Position numbers and translations under genes: made by a program. From a virus (lineage: Duplodnaviria > Heunggongvirae > Uroviricota > Caudoviricetes), in IMG/VR virus record IMGVR_UViG_2681813318_000003: 64,000 nucleotides of DNA; one strand, written 5' to 3'. Below the pieces are notes generated by a model that worked only from the letters and a program-made list of their open reading frames with translations, was not told the DNA's origin and searched no databases. Below are positions 15,186-27,447 of the stretch, piece after piece (position 1 is the stretch's first letter; each line of letters starts with the position of its first letter).

Positions 15186-15650
15186 ATGAAGTCTCCCATA
15201 CTGTTCACTTTCTGTTCTAAAACTAACATGAAATACTCGCTTCTCCCTCTACTAACGTTACCAGTGTTGATGCTTACCGCGTGCCAATCACGTCCAATAT
15301 CAATCCATGACGCCAAACCAGCACCGCAGGCCAAAGTGTTCAAGTATCAAAGCGCAGCGCCAGCTACGTTGGTGGTAATGAGAGACACAGGTTTTGTAGG
15401 AGCTGGATGTGATGCTTCCATTTTCATCAATGGCGAAACTGTCGCAAAACTGGCTACAGGCGAAAAAGCGACTTTCCATTTCAATGCCGGAGAATTAATT
15501 GTGGGTGCATCTCTTGAAGGTGCAGGTTTATGTGCTCTAAACCCCGCTCGTCAAGAGCGAGAAACGACTCTGAAGAATGGAGACACAAAAGCGTTCAGGG
15601 TGTTCACCAGCAATTCTGGTAACATCGACATTCTGCCAACAACTCTGTGA
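15186..15650 (+). CDS. Lipoprotein (lipobox LTAC), possible superinfection-exclusion factor
   Basis: Signal peptide LLPLLTLPVLMLTAC with Cys lipobox; SD AGGGAGA before ATG 15186. Confidence 0.5.
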   Translation: MKSPILFTFCSKTNMKYSLLPLLTLPVLMLTACQSRPISIHDAKPAPQAKVFKYQSAAPATLVVMRDTGFVGAGCDASIFINGETVAKLATGEKATFHFNAGELIVGASLEGAGLCALNPARQERETTLKNGDTKAFRVFTSNSGNIDILPTTL

Positions 15651-15654
15651 TGAC

Positions 15655-16179
15655 ATGACAACCAAAGATATTACCTACGGTATCCAAGCTGAACTCTTGC
15701 CGCGAGATTACACTAACGTTGAAAAACTACTGATGTTCTGGCGCAGAGAACAAATTCCTGTAAGGGTCACTCTCGAAGATGGTCAGGCGTTTTGCATGTA
15801 CGTTTATGGCCTCATGCCATCTCGCAACAAAGTTGACCTTTGCCCAGCCCCTTTTGACAAAGAAAATCGTATAAGGCTCCCACTTGAACGCATTAGTACA
15901 ATTGAATCAGGTGTGGTTGACAGTATCGCTCACGATTTCAAAGGTCGATTAACAGTTCACCCTGATTATGTCGATAATCGGCCATCACGCCGCGATTTTT
16001 TTGCAATTTGCAACCAAGCCTACAAAGCAAACAAATCTATAAGGGTGTACATGGCGGATGGCCGTGAAATTGAGGGGGTGTCAGCAGGCGCAGATGCTTG
16101 TCAGGTTACACTACGTGTCGAGAACGGTAGAAAAATAGTTGTTTTGTTCGATTGGGTTGAACGAATTTTGCCTTTTTGA
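15655..16179 (+). CDS. Hypothetical protein
   Basis: ORF 15577..16179 trimmed to ATG 15655 (MTTKDITYG), which is coupled to the preceding stop TGA. Confidence 0.4.
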   Translation: MTTKDITYGIQAELLPRDYTNVEKLLMFWRREQIPVRVTLEDGQAFCMYVYGLMPSRNKVDLCPAPFDKENRIRLPLERISTIESGVVDSIAHDFKGRLTVHPDYVDNRPSRRDFFAICNQAYKANKSIRVYMADGREIEGVSAGADACQVTLRVENGRKIVVLFDWVERILPF

Positions 16180-16182
16180 GTT

Positions 16183-16491
16183 ATGAAATCGATATTGTTA
16201 CCACCATTATTTTTACTTTGCTCAGTTGCGGCAAATGCAATGGACTATAAGCCTGTCATTCAGTCGCTGATGAATGACGTGTGCTCAACGTCTCAGAATG
16301 TATCAGTTTGCATGTATCAATTTTCGGCAGCCGTAAAAGCAGGAAAAGCGATAGGTGAGAATGTGGAACTGTGTAAGAAAGTGGCAAATGAAGAACGGGC
16401 AATGTTGGATTGCGAATCTAGCGAGTCATCGGCACAGTTCGTTGATGCGCTATTTGACACCAATCGTAAGGCTGTAGAGTCTGTTCAATAA
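16183..16491 (+). CDS. Small secreted or periplasmic protein
   Basis: N-terminal signal peptide MKSILLPPLFLLCSVAANA followed by a Cys-containing mature region. Confidence 0.45.
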   Translation: MKSILLPPLFLLCSVAANAMDYKPVIQSLMNDVCSTSQNVSVCMYQFSAAVKAGKAIGENVELCKKVANEERAMLDCESSESSAQFVDALFDTNRKAVESVQ

Positions 16492-16506
16492 ATCTATAAG
16501 GTTAAT

Positions 16507-16534
16507 AACCGGCTAAGTCCGGTTATTATTTTTC
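16507..16534 (+). terminator. Rho-independent terminator
   Basis: AACCGGCTAAGTCCGGTT hairpin followed by ATTATTTTT. Confidence 0.55.
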
Positions 16535-16682
16535 ACATCACTTCTTTATATCTACAAATCAAATAACCTAAATATATATAAGGTCGAAAGCCGGAATCGA
16601 TTATTTATTTAGGGAACACCTTCGACGATCTCGCTTTTATTTCTAGGACTTTCATCCCTGCAAAAAATTTAAAAAAAATACT

Positions 16683-16730
16683 TGCAATCTTTTTTCGCGT
16701 ATCGATAATTGAACTCGTCGAAAGCGAAGA
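16683..16730 (+). promoter_or_regulatory. Strong sigma70-type promoter with upstream A-tract
   Basis: TTGCAA, 17-bp spacer, GATAAT-like -10, preceded by an AAAAAATTTAAAAAAAA tract (UP-element-like); drives the AT-rich three-gene cassette. Confidence 0.45.
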
Positions 16731-16774
16731 CGCTAACGACAATAAATTTTAAATTTACATAAGGAAAAATTATC

Positions 16775-17425
16775 ATGGCTAACATTATCATTTCTAAAAA
16801 ATCCATCATTGAAGCTGCTTCCATTGTATCCGATGAACTGCGCGAAAAAGCAGATCTGGCAACTCAAACATATAACGAACATTATAAAAATGGTACGCAC
16901 ACTAAAGCAGACAAAGCAAATATGCAAGCTGCGTCCACTAAACTTGCTTACTTCATCAACAACGTCGTAAACGCTGTAGAAGACGAAAAATTATGCTCTG
17001 TTTTCTACTATGCGATTAAAGCAAGCAAACAAGCGCCAGAAGTATTTTTCCGTGATGCTATGACTAATAGTTATTCACTGGAAAAACTGGTTTATCTGGT
17101 TAAATCCATTAAAGCTGGTAAATGCGTTTATTCCGTCGCTGATATGTCAGGATCTCGTGTATTTGCTTTAATCGATATGATTAACGACGAGATCGACACG
17201 TTCACTAATGGCGCTGTTTTCGATTTAATGAATGAAGCTAAAAAAGCGTGCGAAATTAAATTGGACGCTGGCTATACTCAAGCCAACCAGTTGATCAATC
17301 TTTGCGAACGTCTTGGACTTGTTGAAAAAGTCAAAGGAGCTGGGAGCGCAAAAGCTGGTACTCAGCAATATCGCTTCATTAAAAATGATTTCTACAATTA
17401 TTTAGCTGATGCTTTCAAAGCGTAA
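16775..17425 (+). CDS. Hypothetical protein (first gene of AT-rich cassette)
   Basis: 216-aa ORF with SD AAGGAAAAA; codon usage biased to GCT/AAA/GAA/CGT/CTG, unlike neighbouring genes. Confidence 0.5.
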   Translation: MANIIISKKSIIEAASIVSDELREKADLATQTYNEHYKNGTHTKADKANMQAASTKLAYFINNVVNAVEDEKLCSVFYYAIKASKQAPEVFFRDAMTNSYSLEKLVYLVKSIKAGKCVYSVADMSGSRVFALIDMINDEIDTFTNGAVFDLMNEAKKACEIKLDAGYTQANQLINLCERLGLVEKVKGAGSAKAGTQQYRFIKNDFYNYLADAFKA

Positions 17426-17473
17426 TTAATGGAATCAAGCGCCCACTATGGGCGCTTTAAAGGAGCTTTAAAA

Positions 17474-17677
17474 ATGGTCAGCTATGACAAGATCCGCGCA
17501 GAATATCGCGCAAAGTATCGCGCTTATAAACTGGAATTAATCGATGATTTGATCGCGCAACGCGACCAATTAAATTTTACGTTTTCTGATTTGCTTAACA
17601 GCAAGCGAGATTGCAAGCGCAAACGTGAATACTTACGTTTAAGCGCATTAATCGGAAAACTTCAAAATTCTATTTAA
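17474..17677 (+). CDS. Small basic coiled-coil protein
   Basis: ORF 17429..17677 trimmed to ATG 17474 (MVSYDK) with SD AAAGGAG; the upstream in-frame codons run through the GCGCCCACTATGGGCGC hairpin. Confidence 0.4.
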   Translation: MVSYDKIRAEYRAKYRAYKLELIDDLIAQRDQLNFTFSDLLNSKRDCKRKREYLRLSALIGKLQNSI

Positions 17678-17698
17678 TTTTTTTTAAGGAGCTTAATC

Positions 17699-17929
17699 AT
17701 GTTTGTTCTTATCGCTGGCGTTAACGTCCATAACGAATATTATGTTAATCGCATCGCTGGGATCGCTGGTTACGCTGGGCGCGCAGTCGAGCTTATAGAT
17801 GAAACGACGCGCAAAATTGACTTATTGAGCGACCAGGAGCGAAAAAAAGCAGACGTGAACGACGCTGATATATTTTTAATGTTAAAAGCGTTTGTAGAAA
17901 TGGGATTTGAAATCAGTCTACATAAATAA
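17699..17929 (+). CDS. Hypothetical small protein
   Basis: 76-aa ORF with SD TAAGGAG. Confidence 0.45.
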   Translation: MFVLIAGVNVHNEYYVNRIAGIAGYAGRAVELIDETTRKIDLLSDQERKKADVNDADIFLMLKAFVEMGFEISLHK

Positions 17930-17980
17930 AATCGAGCGCTCACTATGGGCGTTTTTTTCGTTTCCAATACTTCCACCATA

Positions 17981-18010
17981 ACGCGCCAATGATGGCGCTT
18001 TTTTTATTGT
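17981..18010 (+). terminator. Rho-independent terminator
   Basis: GCGCCAATGATGGCGC hairpin followed by T8; a related hairpin with a T7 run sits at 17933-17958. Confidence 0.6.
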
Positions 18011-18384
18011 CTTTGACTCAAGCCAACAACATAAAAATAAGCGCCAAAATAACGCCATAGACGCACTTTTATATCCTTACCAGTACATACCCATTACTTA
18101 GCGCATTAACGCACTTAAATCGCGTTATATTGCGTTATGGTGTATGGTTAATCATTGGCTTTTATTCTTGCTATGTGATCCGCGTTTAATTGTCGGCGCG
18201 GATCGGCATTTTGTTTTGTTCCGTATCCGCTCGCGTATTATGTGCGCGTGATTTTTCACATAATCACACCACTTAATCACGTATGTGATTACGCTACGAA
18301 AGAAATCTGGATGTCTCAGGCGACGAAAGTCATCATAATTTTCCCCGCTCACCTGTCCGACAACCGCTGGTTGGATTCCACCAG

Positions 18385-18535
18385 CTTCCCGATGTTTTTT
18401 CTATATAAAGGCGAATGCAGCCGTTTCCCGAAAAAATCCTGGCCGTTCCCCGTCGGCTCATGAATACGTTCCTCGCCGTTTCTGAAAATTTCCCTGCGGC
18501 AGCTGGTGGCTATATAGAAAGGGCCGTTTCTGGCC
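18385..18535. repeat. Cluster of about five degenerate direct repeats CCGTT(T)CC(C)nGAAA
   Basis: CCGTTTCCCGAAAAAA, CCGTTCCCCG, CCGTTTCTGAAAATTTCCCTG, CCGTTTCTGG seen in tandem; second cluster at 21550-21690 in the same orientation. Confidence 0.5.
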
Positions 18536-18545
18536 CTCTTCTCAG

Positions 18546-19870: not shown

Positions 19871-20266
19871 TTAAGCGAATACGCTTTCAGGGATTAAGGT
19901 GTCGGCAGGAATGCCAGAGGTAATGCGCAGACCGTACTGGCCAATCCAGGTGGTGCTGGTGTTCAGGCTGGAGGCGAATACGGTGTTAACCATATTCATC
20001 ATGGTTTCAAACACCTCTTCATCAACCTGGCGGAAGTAGTTCTCGATTTTCAGCAGCAGCGGGTCAGTTGCATCGAGAATGGACTGGTATTGAGTCGCGT
20101 ACTCGCCGCCGGAGGCATCACCTTTACGCACGATCGTACTGGCCTGTACTTCGGCACCAGTTTCGGTGTTGTACGTAACAACGGTGATTTTTGCCACATT
20201 CTTACCTTCGGCGGTTTCAGAGGCATAGTAAACATCAACTGTCAGTTTTTCGCGTTTAACGGTCAT
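19871..20266 (-). CDS. Hypothetical early protein
   Basis: 131-aa ORF with SD GGAGAG; class B palindrome and a terminator lie upstream. Confidence 0.4.
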   Translation of the reverse strand: MTVKREKLTVDVYYASETAEGKNVAKITVVTYNTETGAEVQASTIVRKGDASGGEYATQYQSILDATDPLLLKIENYFRQVDEEVFETMMNMVNTVFASSLNTSTTWIGQYGLRITSGIPADTLIPESVFA

Positions 20267-21236: not shown

Positions 21237-21549
21237 AACGCACAGGCGAAAAAGGATTTTATTCCGGTGAATGTTGTTTTGGCAGTGAGTTTTCAGGTTC
21301 AGTATCGAGTACACTTTTTACATTATTCTGATTTAGTGGCCGAAGGTGGCTGGTGGGCAGAATAATCCTCTCCCCGAAAACCTACTGAAATCGATTGTGA
21401 CCCGTTGGCTGTCTGGCACAATTACGCTGTAGCTGGGCATTCAGAGGGAATCCAGCGGTAAGTAAGTTCGCCTGCACGTGAGCGCCTCTCTTCTTCCCGC
21501 ACATTACAGGTGGGTAGCCGCAACTCTCCCTCACGCTATACCGGTACGC

Positions 21550-21690
21550 CGCCGTTCCTGAACCGGCATCGAGCCTTTTCCCGAAATCCACACAGGCAAC
21601 TCGACCGTTTCCCTGAAAACCTCCAGCCGTTCCCCGAAGGCAACCCAGCCGTTTCTGTAGCGGGATGCAACCTTTTCCCTGTATGGACCG
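21550..21690. repeat. Second cluster of CCGTT(T)CC(C)nGAA(A) direct repeats
   Basis: CCGTTCCTGAACC, TTTTCCCGAAATCC, CCGTTTCCCTGAAAACC, CCGTTCCCCGAAGG, CCGTTTCTGTAGC, TTTTCCCTGTATGG; same orientation as cluster 18385-18535. Confidence 0.5.
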
Positions 21691-21699
21691 AAGGCTGAC

Positions 21700-22750
21700 C
21701 GTAGGGGTGTTACGGGGGATAAAATCAGGAGTTGAATAAATACGAAAAAGGAGGCGACACCCCTCCTTCCCTCCCCACTTATACATACCTGGCTTCTTCG
21801 CTATACACGTTGTGTTTTCTGCGTGTTTTATCTGTCTCAACCTCTCTATGGGCGTTAATGCACACTCCTTCCAGAACGTTCTATACGGCGACTATTTCTG
21901 TTGGTGAATTGGGTGTGTTGTTTTCTCTGTCGGTGTATGTGGTTTCGTTAGTTTTGCGGTGGTTCTTCTATGGGGTGTTCTCGTCGTTTTGGTGATTGTT
22001 CTTCTCCGTCTATGGAGTAATGGCAGGTGGGCGATTCCTTTCGTTATTGTGTTTGAGTTGTTTGTCTGGAGTGCGTGAAGGGCTTTTGTAGTTATTCGTG
22101 TATTGGGTAATGGCGTTTCCCGTGATTGTTATGTTTCGTGTCTTTTGGGATTGAGAGAAACCTTGCGGTTACAGGCTTCGTTGGGGTTTCAGTGATTCTG
22201 ATGTTTCTTCGCTGTTTGGGTAATGGCGTGTCGTGGGTATCGCGCGTATGAATGTTTTCGGATTGCCTGTGAAAGTTAGGTTGGTTCTCCGGTAGCCTGG
22301 GAAGAAGAGGTGGGTCTTTTCGGTAGCCTGCCATAAAGAGGTTGGTTGTTTTGGGAATGGCATATGTGTTATTTAGTTGTTTTGTTATGCCTGAAAATAA
22401 GTTGTTTATATGGTTATGTAACGCAACGGGAACGATTTTGAGCGTGTGTTTTTGTTGGTAGTGTGTTGGGTCGTCTGTGGTGAAAATTGGACGCTGTGGC
22501 GCTGTCTGCTGCGTAGAATTACGGGTATAAGCAGTGATGTGTGAAAACGTCAATTTTTTAGACCAAATCGGGTGAAAGCGTTGATGTTTCGTTGATCTGT
22601 TATTCAGTTGTTTTCTTGATTGTATAAACAACTATAACTTATTGATATTTAAGGATGTGATTGCGGGTATGGAAGGGGAGTAGTGGCGATCAACGGATTC
22701 TTATAGAAAAGAATCAAATTGTGACCGCCATTATCAATGAGTTGCAACCG
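21700..22750. other. About 1-kb non-coding tract with strong G+T skew on the plus strand
   Basis: No credible ORF; recurring GGTAATGGCG-type units at roughly 100-bp spacing (about 22010, 22095, 22215) and CGGTAGCCTG..AGAGGTGG duplicated. Confidence 0.4.
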
Positions 22751-24155: not shown

Positions 24156-26189
24156 TTACTTAACCTGGTGGCCAGGTTTAGCACCAGCATCCGGGCTTAA
24201 CAGGAAGATATCTTTCCCGCCGGGGCCAGCAGCCATCACCATGCCTTCAGAGATACCGAAGCGCATTTTACGCGGAGCCAGGTTAGCCACCATAATTGTG
24301 TGACGACCAATCAGTGCCTGTGGGTCTGGATAAGCAGAACGGATGCCTGAGAAGACATTACGCTTTTCACCACCGAGATCCAGCGTCAGGCGCAGCAGCT
24401 TGTCAGAACCTTCAACAAACTCTGCGTTTTCAATCAGCGCCACGCGCAGGTCAACTTTAGCGAAGTCGTCAAAGGTGATGGTTTCCTGAATCGGGTCGTC
24501 TGCCAGTGGGCCAGTTACCGGTGCGGCTGTGGCTTTCACTTCTTCTTTGGATGCTTCCACCAGTGCTTCCACCTGTTTCATATCGATACGGTTATACAAT
24601 GCCTTGAACGGATTCACTTTATGGCCCAGCAGCGGTTGCTGGATACCATCCCAGGTCAGTTCTGTATTCAGGAATGCTTCTGCACGTTCAGTCAGTTTCG
24701 GCAGTACCGGTTTCAAGTACGTCATCAGCACGCGGAACAGGTTAATGCCCATAGAGCAAATCGCCTGCAGATCGGCATCGCGTCCTTCCTGCTTCGCCAC
24801 CACCCACGGAGCCTGTTCATCAACATAGCGGTTAGCCAGGTCAGCCAGTGCCATGATTTCACGGATAGCTTTACCAAATTCGCGGCTTTCCCATGCTTCG
24901 CCAATCACTTCAGCGGCATCAGTAAAGGTTTTGTACAGTTGCGGGTCAGCCAGTTCGCTTGCCAGCACGCCGTCAAAACGCTTGTTGATAAAGCCTGCAT
25001 TACGGGAGGCCAGGTTAACCACTTTGTTCACGATATCGGCATTCACGCGCTGAACGAAATCCTCCAGGTTGAGATCGATATCATCAATGCGCGAAGAGAG
25101 TTTCGCAGTGTAGTAGTAACGCAGGCTGTCGGCGTCAAAATGATTCAGCCAGGTGCTGGCTTTAATAAAGGTGCCGCGAGACTTGGACATCTTCGCGCCG
25201 TTCACCGTCACATAGCCGTGAACAAACAGGTTGGTCGGCTTGCGGAAGTTGCTGCCTTCCAGCATGGCAGGCCAGAACAGGCTGTGGAAGTAAACAATAT
25301 CTTTACCGATGAAGTGGTACAGCTCGGCGGTGGAGTCTTTCTTCCAGTATTCATCGAAGCTGGTGGTATCGCCGCGCTTGTCGCACAGATTCTTGAAGGA
25401 ACCCATGTAGCCAATCGGCGCGTCCAGCCAGACGTAGAAATATTTGCCCGGCGCGTTCGGAATTTCAAAACCGAAGTAAGGCGCATCGCGGGAGATATCC
25501 CACTGTTGCAGGCCGGATTCAAACCATTCCTGCATTTTGTTCGCCACCTGCTCCTGCAACGCGCCGCTGCGGGTCCATGCCTGCAACATTTCGCTGAAAG
25601 AAGGCAGATCAAAGAAGAAGTGTTCGGAATCACGCATTACCGGGGTAGCGCCAGAAACCACCGATTTCGGCTCGATCAATTCAGTCGGGCTATATGTTGC
25701 GCCGCAGACTTCACAGTTATCGCCGTATTGATCTGGCGCTTTACATTTCGGGCAGGTGCCTTTTACAAAACGATCCGGCAGGAACATGCCTTTTTCCGGG
25801 TCGTACAACTGAGAGATAGTGCGGTTTTTAATAAAACCGTTCTCTTTCAGGCGAGTATAGATAAGCTCAGACAACTGACGGTTCTCTTCGCTGTGCGTCG
25901 AGTGATAGTTGTCATAGCTGATGTTAAAGCCTGCGAAATCAGTCTGATGCTCATGACTCATTTCGCCAATCATCTGCTCCGGTGTGATACCAAGCTGCTG
26001 TGCTTTCAGCATGATCGGCGTACCGTGGGCATCGTCGGCACAGATGAAATTAACCTCGTGGCCGCGCATTCGCTGGTAACGAACCCAGACATCAGCCTGG
26101 ATGTGCTCCAGCATATGGCCGAGGTGGATTGAGCCGTTAGCGTACGGCAGCGCGCACGTCACCAGAATTTTCTTCGCGACTTGGGTCAT
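24156..26189 (-). CDS. metG: Methionine--tRNA ligase (host-type)
   Basis: 677-aa protein starting [31 protein letters not shown], class I HIGH motif, zinc knuckles CPKC/CEVC, KMSKS motif. Near-identical (a handful of substitutions) to Escherichia coli MetG as recalled from memory, not from a database search. The longer ORF to 26318 is an upstream read-through. Confidence 0.95.
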
Positions 26190-26346
26190 AGTAGGCATTA
26201 CTTCTTTGTAGTGAAAAGGGGCTTGATAGTAACAAAATGGCCTTATGTCTGCCATGTGATAACAGCATTTCTCATAAATGATTAAATGTCGTAGCTGGAG
26301 TACACTACAAGGCGACAATTGCGCAAATTAAAATAAAGGAGACGGG

Positions 26347-27447
26347 ATGAGCGAGTCCAAATCGCCGGATGCCCTGAGAGCAATGGTAGCCGGTACGCTG
26401 GCTAATTTTCAGCACCCAACCCTGAAACACAACCTGACTACGCTTAAAGCGTTACACCATGTTGCGTTGATGGATGACACACTGCATGTCGAACTAATCA
26501 TGCCTTTCGTGTGGAATAAGCCTTTTGAAGACCTGAAAGAGCAATGTAGTGGTGATCTGCTCCGTATCACTGGCGCAAAGGCTATTGACTGGAAGCTGTC
26601 GTACAACATTGCCACGCTTAAGCGCGTCAAAAACCAACCAGGCATTAATGGCGTTAAGAACATTATCGCCGTCAGCTCAGGCAAGGGCGGCGTGGGTAAA
26701 TCCTCCACGGCGGTAAACCTGGCACTGGCGTTGGCTGCTGAAGGTGCGAAAGTTGGTATTTTGGATGCCGATATCTATGGTCCATCAATTCCAACCATGC
26801 TGGGCGCGGAAAACCAACGTCCAACCTCACCTGACGGTACTCACATGGCACCTATCATGTCTCATGGCCTGGCAACCAACTCTATTGGTTATCTGGTCAC
26901 CGACGACAATGCAATGGTGTGGCGTGGACCGATGGCCAGCAAGGCGCTGATGCAGATGTTGCAGGAAACTCTATGGCCTGATCTGGACTATCTCGTTCTC
27001 GATATGCCGCCGGGCACTGGTGATATTCAGTTGACGCTGGCGCAGAACATTCCTGTAACTGGTGCGGTTGTGGTAACTACGCCGCAAGACATCGCGCTGA
27101 TCGATGCGAAGAAAGGCATTGTGATGTTCGAAAAAGTCGAAGTGCCGGTACTGGGTATCGTCGAAAACATGAGTGTGCATATTTGCAGTAACTGCGGTCA
27201 TCACGAGCCAATTTTTGGCACCGGTGGCGCACAGAAACTGGCCGAGAAATACAACACGCAGTTGTTAGGCCAAATGCCACTTCATATCTCTCTTCGTGAA
27301 GATCTGGATAACGGAACACCAACCGTTATTAGTCGTCCAGATAGCGAATTTACGGCTATTTATCGTGACCTCGCAGATCGCGTTGCTGCCCAAATGTATT
27401 GGCAAGGTGAAGTAATACCTGGCGAAATCGCATTCCGCGCAGTGTGA
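26347..27447 (+). CDS. apbC: Fe-S cluster carrier ATPase Mrp/ApbC (host-type)
   Basis: 366 aa, P-loop SGKGGVGKS, CxxC motif ICSNCGHHEP; divergent from metG with a 157-bp intergenic region as in the enterobacterial chromosome. Confidence 0.95.
   Translation: MSESKSPDALRAMVAGTLANFQHPTLKHNLTTLKALHHVALMDDTLHVELIMPFVWNKPFEDLKEQCSGDLLRITGAKAIDWKLSYNIATLKRVKNQPGINGVKNIIAVSSGKGGVGKSSTAVNLALALAAEGAKVGILDADIYGPSIPTMLGAENQRPTSPDGTHMAPIMSHGLATNSIGYLVTDDNAMVWRGPMASKALMQMLQETLWPDLDYLVLDMPPGTGDIQLTLAQNIPVTGAVVVTTPQDIALIDAKKGIVMFEKVEVPVLGIVENMSVHICSNCGHHEPIFGTGGAQKLAEKYNTQLLGQMPLHISLREDLDNGTPTVISRPDSEFTAIYRDLADRVAAQMYWQGEVIPGEIAFRAV

Follow-up and report, generated by a model that had tools for sequence, protein, structure and literature searches.

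A three-gene cassette in an SSU5-like phage-plasmid

The stretch of viral DNA analysed here, 64,000 nucleotides of IMG/VR record IMGVR_UViG_2681813318_000003 (hereafter the window), is an SSU5-like phage-plasmid of the same family as Salmonella Typhi pHCM2 and Yersinia pestis pMT1, and this report concerns an AT-rich cassette at 16500-18110 together with the DNA that flanks it. The cassette carries three small plus-strand genes: g216 (16775..17425; 216 amino acids, 24 kDa; PHROG 1513), a core gene of these elements, and two accessory genes, g67 (17474..17677; 67 amino acids) and g76 (17699..17929; 76 amino acids; PHROG 1585). All three had been called in an initial annotation made from the sequence, and all three prove to be under purifying selection, the ratio of nonsynonymous to synonymous substitution (dN/dS) being 0.04-0.15 where synonymous sites are unsaturated.

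The minus strand holds nearly all genes of the element, and the cassette ends the sole sizeable plus-strand block, which encodes, in this order, a DEAD-box/UvsW helicase, a 92-amino-acid protein, a lipoprotein, an FljA-like protein, a 102-amino-acid secreted protein, g216, g67 and g76. At the DNA level, the interval 16400-18300 shares 98% identity with E. coli plasmids of ~100-110 kb (with matches in 512 plasmids), 96% with Escherichia phage CMS-2020a and 94-95% with phages PhiR41_1 and Cyrano. Motif searches said below to span ~110 kb covered the window plus the remaining 46 kb of a close relative.

The low content of guanine plus cytosine (GC) that first drew attention to the region is borne out by windowed calculation. 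GC at 16500-18110 is 37.7% versus a window mean of 46.2% (standard deviation 2.6 in 1.6-kb windows), so low a value being found in only 0.26% of such windows, and the lowest point of the entire window falls at the cassette, with the intergenic stretch upstream of g216 at 31%. Its reading as a foreign composition betraying recent acquisition does not survive comparison with relatives, in every one of which the g216 orthologue likewise lies below its own locus in GC, including those at 31-48% protein identity. Because this low GC is common to all relatives, the AT-richness of the cassette is old, maintained and ancestral. In part, the low GC of g216 reflects a preference for A/U-ending major codons: GC at third codon positions is 0.34 alongside a codon adaptation index (CAI; computed with Sharp and Li weights) of 0.44, which ranks sixth among 90 open reading frames (ORFs). 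Its neighbours on this scale are the major head protein (0.62), single-stranded DNA-binding protein (SSB; 0.46), scaffold (0.44), tail/Ig protein (0.42) and UvsX-like recombinase (0.40), a codon usage that would place g216 in the class of stoichiometric lytic proteins. The claim of highly-expressed-gene codons thus stands for g216; it fails for g67 and g76, whose CAI of 0.25-0.27 is near the window mean of 0.29.

Conserved control DNA upstream of g216

Transcription of the cassette is predicted to start from a sigma70-type promoter on the plus strand, TTGCAA-16 nt-GATAAT (16682..16709). It had been described as near-consensus with a 17-nt spacer; the spacer is 16 nt and the match to the consensus only 9/12, and a consensus scan of 15.5-19.5 kb returns 9 promoter-like sites against 8.7 in shuffled sequences, no better than chance. 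We nevertheless take the promoter as real because it is conserved, and not because of its consensus score. In 76 distinct relatives, conservation reaches at least 90% for the A-run, for the TTG of the -35 hexamer and for the -10 region TCGATAATT, with the 16-nt spacer kept, while synonymous sites between the same relatives are saturated (dS ~1).

The A-tract reported before the promoter is indeed found immediately 5' of the -35 hexamer (AAAAAATTTAAAAAAAAT, 16661..16680, plus strand; read from the sequence) and is UP-element-like. With +1 taken near 16716, positions 16671-16679 fall at -46 to -38 and fit the proximal UP subsite, the consensus of which is reportedly AAAAAARNR (Estrem et al. 1998/1999). 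An A/T tract is present at -38 to -59 and the A-run abutting the -35 is conserved. Near the predicted 5' end of the mRNA, GTCGAAAGCGAAGACGCTAACGAC (16717..16740, plus strand) folds into a hairpin of -9.8 kcal/mol (z -2.7), in which one pair switches cleanly between A-U (12 sequences) and G-C (4). Three divergent lineages fold different sequences at the same position, G-U pairs included, and the relative L095 has GAATCAG...CTGATTC. These observations fit a 5' stabiliser hairpin, or alternatively a palindromic operator.

Further upstream, an intrinsic terminator at 16503..16533 (plus strand; a 10-bp stem followed by a T-run, -12.6 kcal/mol, z -4.55) closes the preceding plus-strand operon, from the helicase to the 102-amino-acid gene, and insulates the cassette from it. 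Between this terminator and the A-tract lie three plus-strand sequence boxes, 60-140 bp 5' of the promoter, whose conservation, by phylogenetic footprinting, exceeds that of the promoter. Box 1 (ATATATAAGG, 16574..16583) is invariant in 9/9 relatives retrieved by protein and in the 76 distinct sequences. Its generalised form, AT[CA]TATAAGG, has extra plus-strand copies at 16035-16044, inside the FljA-like gene, and at 16492-16501; each element has 1-3 copies, all of them plus-strand and 5' of g216, with none elsewhere in ~110 kb. Where the motif is embedded in the FljA-like coding sequence it uses the rare codons ATA and AGG. Box 2 (ATTTATTTAGGGAACACCTTCGA, 16603..16625) is conserved in relatives whose g216 proteins are 31-48% identical and is unique in the window even when 3 mismatches are allowed (0 expected). 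All 66 of the 66 box-2 loci in IMG/VR with enough downstream DNA have g216 ~170-180 nt downstream; conservation of box 2 inside that set is circular, because the motif served as the query. Box 3 (TTTATTTCTAGGACTTT, 16634..16652) is at least 90% conserved over the 76 sequences and is kept in the most distant relatives.

The AGG cores of the three boxes are spaced by 30 and 32 bp, that is, by about three helical turns. No conserved pairing or covariation was found across the boxes when they were considered as structured RNA (single-sequence fold z +0.2), for which reason they are likeliest to be protein-binding DNA; Rfam gave no family match in 16.0-19.2 kb. A degenerate box1-box2 scan of 596 Gb of genomes was too loose to be informative, with 82/87 hits arising by chance, without g216.

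Several candidates for this region were considered and dropped. A sigma28 (FliA) promoter came to mind since its -10 element CGATAA resembles GCCGATAA and an FljA-like gene lies upstream, yet its -35 matches at only 2/8 positions by eye. Box 2 resembles the SP6 promoter, but the genome of a close relative has no annotated phage RNA polymerase by which a T7/SP6-like promoter could be read. The FljA-like protein is an improbable box binder, since L095 has the boxes without an FljA-like gene between helicase and g216. Finally, the repeat TCGTCGAAAG, considered as an operator, is no more frequent than expected by chance.

g216 is a core gene with a predicted winged helix

PLSDB has 815 plasmids with a g216 homologue: 346 from Klebsiella, 217 from Escherichia, 91 from Enterobacter, 62 from Yersinia, 49 from Salmonella and the remainder from other hosts. 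Nearly all of these plasmids are non-mobilizable, and those listed measure mostly ~100-115 kb. Homologues also occur in 12 deposited phages, all SSU5-like. An exhaustive HMMER profile search of 1.84 billion representative proteins recovered only 23 clusters, all of the g216 family. The gene occupies the same position in every SSU5-like element examined, distant metagenomic relatives included, and those distant full-length members that could be placed (31-33% identity) again share it. The common order is ParB-ParB on one strand, helicase, g216, 600-750 bp of non-coding DNA and then, on the other strand, a group of small genes. The distribution thus identifies g216 as an old core gene of SSU5-type phage-plasmids, and for a gene that is core, syntenic and AT-rich throughout its family the proposed horizontal acquisition is not supported.

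The initial annotation recognised no motif in the products and called for searches of remote homology and structure. For g216, these gave a divided answer: no curated helix-turn-helix or winged helix-turn-helix family was matched in Pfam, NCBIfam or a profile search of PDB sequences, whereas structure prediction returned a winged helix. The AlphaFold model, built with 15 diverse homologues (predicted local distance difference test score, pLDDT, 82; predicted template-modelling score 0.70), begins with two antiparallel helices of ~30 residues (8-39 and 44-69), followed by three short helices. Then come helix 128-137, a strand, helices 145-158 and 168-179 and a strand pair, 183-185/198-201, that is, the helix-turn-helix followed by a beta-hairpin wing that defines winged helices. 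Conservation peaks in the third helix, which is polar with a TQxxQ motif, and in the wing: D164, T168 and Q169 do not vary and Q172 hardly does, and in the Lys/Gly-rich wing K185, K187, G188, G190 and K193 are invariant among closer relatives. The N-terminal hairpin is variable. On the strength of this model, g216 probably binds DNA. In Foldseek comparisons with BFVD nothing reached E < 0.001, the top rows, labelled 'RNA polymerase', having a template-modelling score of 0.15 and representing noise, and PADLOC gave no defence-protein match for g216 or g76.

The cassette is silent in a related lysogen

Expression can be judged from the relative Cyrano, the g216 homologue of which is 97% identical and whose promoter hexamers, spacer length and boxes 2-3 are identical to those described here. 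Misson et al. (PMC9928086, S1 Table) sequenced the RNA of an E. coli LF82 lysogen carrying Cyrano. In overnight LB culture, the g216 homologue CYRAN_113 had a mean of 5.9 normalised reads and the g76 homologue CYRAN_112 a mean of 5.0, which is the floor, compared with an element median of 9.8 and the authors' moron cut-off of 49 (PMC9928086). Both genes are 8-10 fold under that cut-off, g76 being the one of the two small genes with a Cyrano homologue, and the proposal of a moron expressed from the prophage is not supported. The plus-strand genes upstream are transcribed in the same lysogen (helicase 46, CYRAN_117 114, FljA-like 18; PMC9928086). Because they are and the g216 homologue is not, the terminator at 16503-16533 must work and the g216 promoter must be off.

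Across ten samples, CYRAN_113 lies at 2.3-3.9 on a scale of log2(5+FPKM), where FPKM stands for fragments per kilobase per million, and reaches 5.5-5.7 only at 6 h in macrophages. At that time point the major capsid gene goes from 2.8-4.3 to 7.4-7.8, while the major tail gene and CYRAN_13 climb to 8.4-8.5 and 7.6, respectively (PMC9928086). In no other condition do these three genes or the g216 homologue rise. It may be viewed, indirectly, as a signal from a few induced cells, which would place g216 among the highly expressed lytic genes. Our literature search found no lytic transcriptome or virion proteome of SSU5-like phages. Direct control of the cassette by the CI-like repressor of the element was also considered and rejected, since its candidate operator GGTAAGNNCTTACC is enriched in the window with no copy in 16.4-18.2 kb.

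Interchangeable small genes between terminator hairpins

Downstream of g216, the plus strand carries hairpins of the GCGCYCACTATGGGCG type at two places. The first, T1 (17438..17456, core 17439-17454), has an 8-bp stem within a fold of -15.5 kcal/mol and a TTT tail; the second, T2 (17934..17961, hairpin 17936-17951), is its duplicate with a 9-bp stem and T7. Over 34 nt the two show 82% identity, and ~110 kb contain no further copy. The duplication that the initial annotation had seen is thus real, and T2 is a full intrinsic terminator; T1 is one only in part, having the stem but just UUU behind it, and since only three T follow the stem we regard it as a weak terminator. It would be a leaky terminator or attenuator, or else a 3' stabiliser of the mRNA, between g216 and the small genes. 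A third canonical terminator had been overlooked: T3 (GCGCCAATGATGGCGC, 17983..18005, plus strand) has a 6-bp GC stem and T7, is conserved in relatives and is likewise a full intrinsic terminator. Given a conserved promoter of its own, T2 and T3 at its end and the insulating terminator upstream, the cassette is indeed the autonomous unit it had been taken for.

For g67 we place the start at 17474 and not at 17429, the start of the longest ORF, because AAGGAG lies 8 nt upstream of it and the resulting 67-amino-acid protein matches PHROG 6145 over its full length; the longer ORF would overlap the T1 hairpin. The product is basic (isoelectric point, pI, 9.7) and helical. Neither g67 nor g76 gives anything above noise in Pfam, NCBIfam or PADLOC (the weak PADLOC hit of g67 has E 0.027 and 12 bits), their PHROG matches are uninformative (PHROG 1585 of g76, like PHROG 1513 of g216, has no assigned function), and the AlphaFold2 model of g76 is poor (pLDDT 54). 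Both PHROG 6145 and SSU5_119, the g67 orthologue of SSU5, bear the label 'MIT family metal ion transporter'. MIT/CorA transporters are of ~300 amino acids and have C-terminal transmembrane helices and a CorA domain. With only 67 amino acids, a hydrophilic composition (grand average of hydropathy -0.65) and no CorA match in Pfam, g67 is no such transporter; no source beyond the SSU5 record was found for the name, and the label is an annotation error.

Variable presence, as in morons, is seen for the two small genes, with g67 in 517 and g76 in 373 PLSDB plasmids; it is not seen for g216, which all relatives have and which is present in 815. Variants of g76 that are ~50% identical occur in pMT1 and pHCM2. 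Of the IMG/VR loci, 13 have g216 without either gene behind it, 20 have only g67 there, 20 only g76 and 13 the pair; further small ORFs, of 62, 75 and 78 amino acids, are found at this place as well. Each small-gene cassette opens with a common junction (TTTAAGGAGCTTAAT..ATG) and closes with a copy of the hairpin, of which there are at most 3 per locus; the ribosome-binding-site junction common to g67 and g76 is TTTAAGGAGCTT. Internal hairpin copies in relatives carry 1-4 T in 37/40 cases, and the last copy 5-7 T in 52/57. Neither gene has a promoter of its own, and both families are confined to SSU5-like elements. g67 and g76 are thus interchangeable promoterless accessory cassettes.

By way of analogy only, the arrangement recalls the cassettes of integrons, in that a promoterless array of ORFs served by one promoter has hairpin ends and occurs in varying combinations and orders. 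Unlike attC, however, the hairpin here is a 20-nt intrinsic terminator, and there is no adjacent integrase. Since the shared boundaries are a ribosome-binding-site junction and a terminator, homologous recombination between co-resident relatives at these boundaries would be the simpler explanation, and on the sequences it is the simplest reading of how the shuffling arose.

Neighbouring features

Two genes separate the lipoprotein gene from the cassette. The FljA-like gene (15577-16179) matches Pfam Flag1_repress with E 1.7e-82 and has a weak Hfq-like match at its C-terminus; in Salmonella, FljA represses flagellin mRNA post-transcriptionally. The FljA-like gene, which the Cyrano lysogen transcribes, precedes g216 in those closer relatives that were examined; L095 lacks it at this place. 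The 102-amino-acid protein between it and the cassette (16183-16491) has a signal-peptide-like N-terminus and several cysteines, and is found in E. coli and Klebsiella relatives and absent from SSU5, pMT1 and pHCM2.

Downstream, ~600 bp of non-coding DNA (17930-18545) between g76 and a convergent minus-strand gene of 160 amino acids is conserved in all relatives. It contains four direct GCCGTT[TC]C repeats (18420, 18442, 18475 and 18523) and two Chi sites, at 18378-18385 on the minus and 18502-18509 on the plus strand. Chi sites (GCTGGTGG) are in ~10-fold excess window-wide (13 versus 1.3 expected from shuffles) and occur in both orientations. A second repeat cluster at 21551-21655 (region 21525-21700), 3.1 kb away, has a near-identical core of ~40 bp and a spacing of ~22 bp; the two clusters flank five small minus-strand genes and look iteron-like, but RepA and ParA of Cyrano lie elsewhere. 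Just past the second cluster, 21780-22560 comprises ~800 nt of non-coding DNA with a G+T-rich plus strand (GC skew +0.44 and AT skew -0.40 at 22001-22500). A similar GT-rich insert lies between the boxes and the g216 promoter in L095.

Elsewhere, a perfect palindrome, GGTAAGCACTTACC, stands just 5' of the CI-like repressor gene (9771-9784 of L091, the rest of a 98%-identical plasmid). Near-matches with at most 2 mismatches number 10 in the window versus 1.4 expected, at positions that include 20313, 33072, 37126, 39341, 48893 and 53575, and none is near the cassette; the pattern suggests a dispersed, P1-style operator set. The minus-strand gene at 19871-20266 encodes an acidic protein of 131 amino acids (PHROG 2473) whose CAI of 0.53 is the second highest of the window, for which reason it is probably another abundant product. 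At 24156-27447, in a patch of 50-52% GC, divergently oriented genes for methionyl-tRNA synthetase (720 amino acids, CAI 0.49) and ApbC/Mrp form a pair, which Cyrano also has (CYRAN_100 and CYRAN_99); the two genes are neighbours in the same way on the E. coli chromosome.

Discussion

The explanation that we favour, though with no more than middling confidence, is that the cassette is a self-contained lytic-cycle unit, which is off in the plasmid prophage and probably strongly transcribed by the host polymerase. During lytic growth, host RNA polymerase would transcribe it strongly, and g216 would accumulate as an abundant sequence-specific DNA-binding or architectural lytic protein. Boxes 1-3 would be bound either by g216 itself or by a lytic-cycle activator or anti-silencer that turns the unit on. 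As the layout suggests, T1 would let a fraction of transcripts read into g67 and g76, and so keep the accessory genes at a lower level than g216, while T2 and T3 would close the unit.

A number of observations weigh against this explanation. A promoter with a 9/12 match and an UP-like tract should fire on its own, so that its silence in the lysogen needs a repressor or silencer, and the candidate operator of the CI-like repressor is absent from 16.4-18.2 kb. The sequence makes silencing of the 31%-GC region by H-NS plausible, its -10 region TCGATAATT resembling the H-NS nucleation motif, which is TCGATAAATT. The distance between boxes and promoter is variable, being ~200 nt greater in L095, and this disfavours a rigid activator geometry. 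Binding of g216 to the boxes is a proposal, and its DNA binding is itself argued from the predicted fold; g216 found no match in Pfam, NCBIfam, PDB sequences (with either the single sequence or a 15-sequence profile) or BFVD, and its neutral pI of 7.6 is that of neither a DNA mimic nor a basic protein of the histone-like kind. The 5' hairpin shows little covariation, the one clean pair probably reflecting a single evolutionary event. Lytic expression, too, is argued from transcriptomes of the uninduced lysogen of a relative; the rise at 6 h is small, and the authors conclude that Cyrano is not induced in macrophages (PMC9928086).

How do other readings of the same evidence fare? That g216 is a low-copy lytic switch, be it a late-gene activator or an anti-repressor, with the boxes as its autoregulatory operators, is possible, if not likely. 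A winged-helix fold with an invariant recognition helix, conserved sites adjoining its own gene and silence in the lysogen are all what such a switch would show. Its codon adaptation, however, groups g216 with stoichiometric proteins, which is unusual for a regulator, the strong UP-like promoter and the mRNA 5' hairpin point to high output, and the box motifs occur nowhere else in ~110 kb, leaving no visible regulon. Rather more doubtful is the idea that g216 and the invariant non-coding DNA on either side of it form an unrecognised cis/trans module of SSU5-type phage-plasmids, in which g216, as an abundant DNA-architectural protein of the lytic cycle, nucleates on its sites. The cis parts would be the three phased boxes and, downstream, the conserved 600-bp stretch with its GCCGTTYC repeats; in opposite-strand orientation these are GGGAAC-like, which makes them similar to box 2. 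g216 might act, for example, as a hub of counter-silencing, at a lytic origin or where the DNA is packaged or condensed. The same codon usage that speaks against a switch would suit a structural, assembly or virion-internal protein, given that head, scaffold and tail proteins share the high-CAI class and that the expression profile of g216 parallels that of capsid and tail genes. We nonetheless consider it unlikely that g216 is such a protein, with a winged-helix-like domain that does not act on specific DNA, since the recognition-helix residues are invariant, as expected of base contacts, since its gene sits beside the helicase in the sole plus-strand block, away from the structural module, and since it has no structural PHROG annotation and no structural hit.

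The proposal from which this analysis set out, a horizontally acquired moron expressed from the prophage to the benefit of host or prophage (by defence, anti-defence or lysogenic conversion), now appears quite improbable. The AT-richness, the unit's own promoter and terminators and the variable presence of g67 and g76 among close relatives do speak for it, but g216 is core, syntenic and AT-rich in all relatives, the g216 and g76 homologues are at the detection floor in the lysogen, below the element median, PADLOC offers no convincing match (only that of g67 with E 0.027), and the restriction of all three families to SSU5-like elements gives no sign of transfer between phage types. To a role in plasmid maintenance, with g216 as a centromere-binding (TubR/ParR-like) or origin-binding protein and the boxes or GCCGTTYC repeats as centromere or iterons, we give very little credence: although a TubR match was obtained, it is generic for winged helices, no partner nucleoside triphosphatase is adjacent, and the gene is silent in the lysogen, where partition and replication must run and where the RepA and ParA of Cyrano, encoded elsewhere, are expressed.

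Comparison with known systems bears on the lytic unit that we prefer. Phage morons were reportedly defined in lambdoid phages by Juhala, Hendrix et al. Like those morons, the cassette is compact, carries a promoter and intrinsic terminators of its own and is lower in GC than its neighbours, and g67 and g76 are variably present among relatives. Unlike them, its main gene is core family-wide and silent in the prophage, and its small genes are promoterless and show no evidence of acquisition from outside the family. The UP promoter of rrnB P1 likewise has an A/T tract at ~-38 to -59 that abuts the -35, and its three Fis sites resemble in geometry the boxes centred near -71, -103 and -139; the boxes, however, are invariant 10-22-mers of much greater specificity than Fis sites, distant relatives do not keep them at a fixed distance from the promoter, and the cassette is silent during lysogen outgrowth, when Fis is abundant. 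Winged-helix proteins such as MarR, ArsR/CadC, Fur/PerR and TubR differ from g216 in that g216 belongs to none of their sequence families, and its pair of 30-residue helices and 216-amino-acid architecture have no full-length match in PDB or BFVD.

In more general terms, low GC, a promoter and terminators are not enough to call a moron; in the present case, the GC is old and in part a matter of codon selection. The slot bounded by hairpins provides an example of the shuffling of accessory ORFs at terminator boundaries. What remains is an uncharacterised core gene, probably lytic, unusually well-conserved control DNA and a small slot for accessory genes, a picture of moderate interest to those who study phage-plasmids. 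SSU5-type phage-plasmids are common in clinical Enterobacteriaceae, including pMT1 of the plague bacillus and pHCM2 of Salmonella Typhi, and their lytic programme is almost unstudied. Since the locus unites a core gene whose product is predicted to match scaffold or SSB in abundance, a fold that probably binds DNA and has no characterised relative, and a set of invariant boxes, it would be a sensible entry point for studies of the switch from plasmid to phage.

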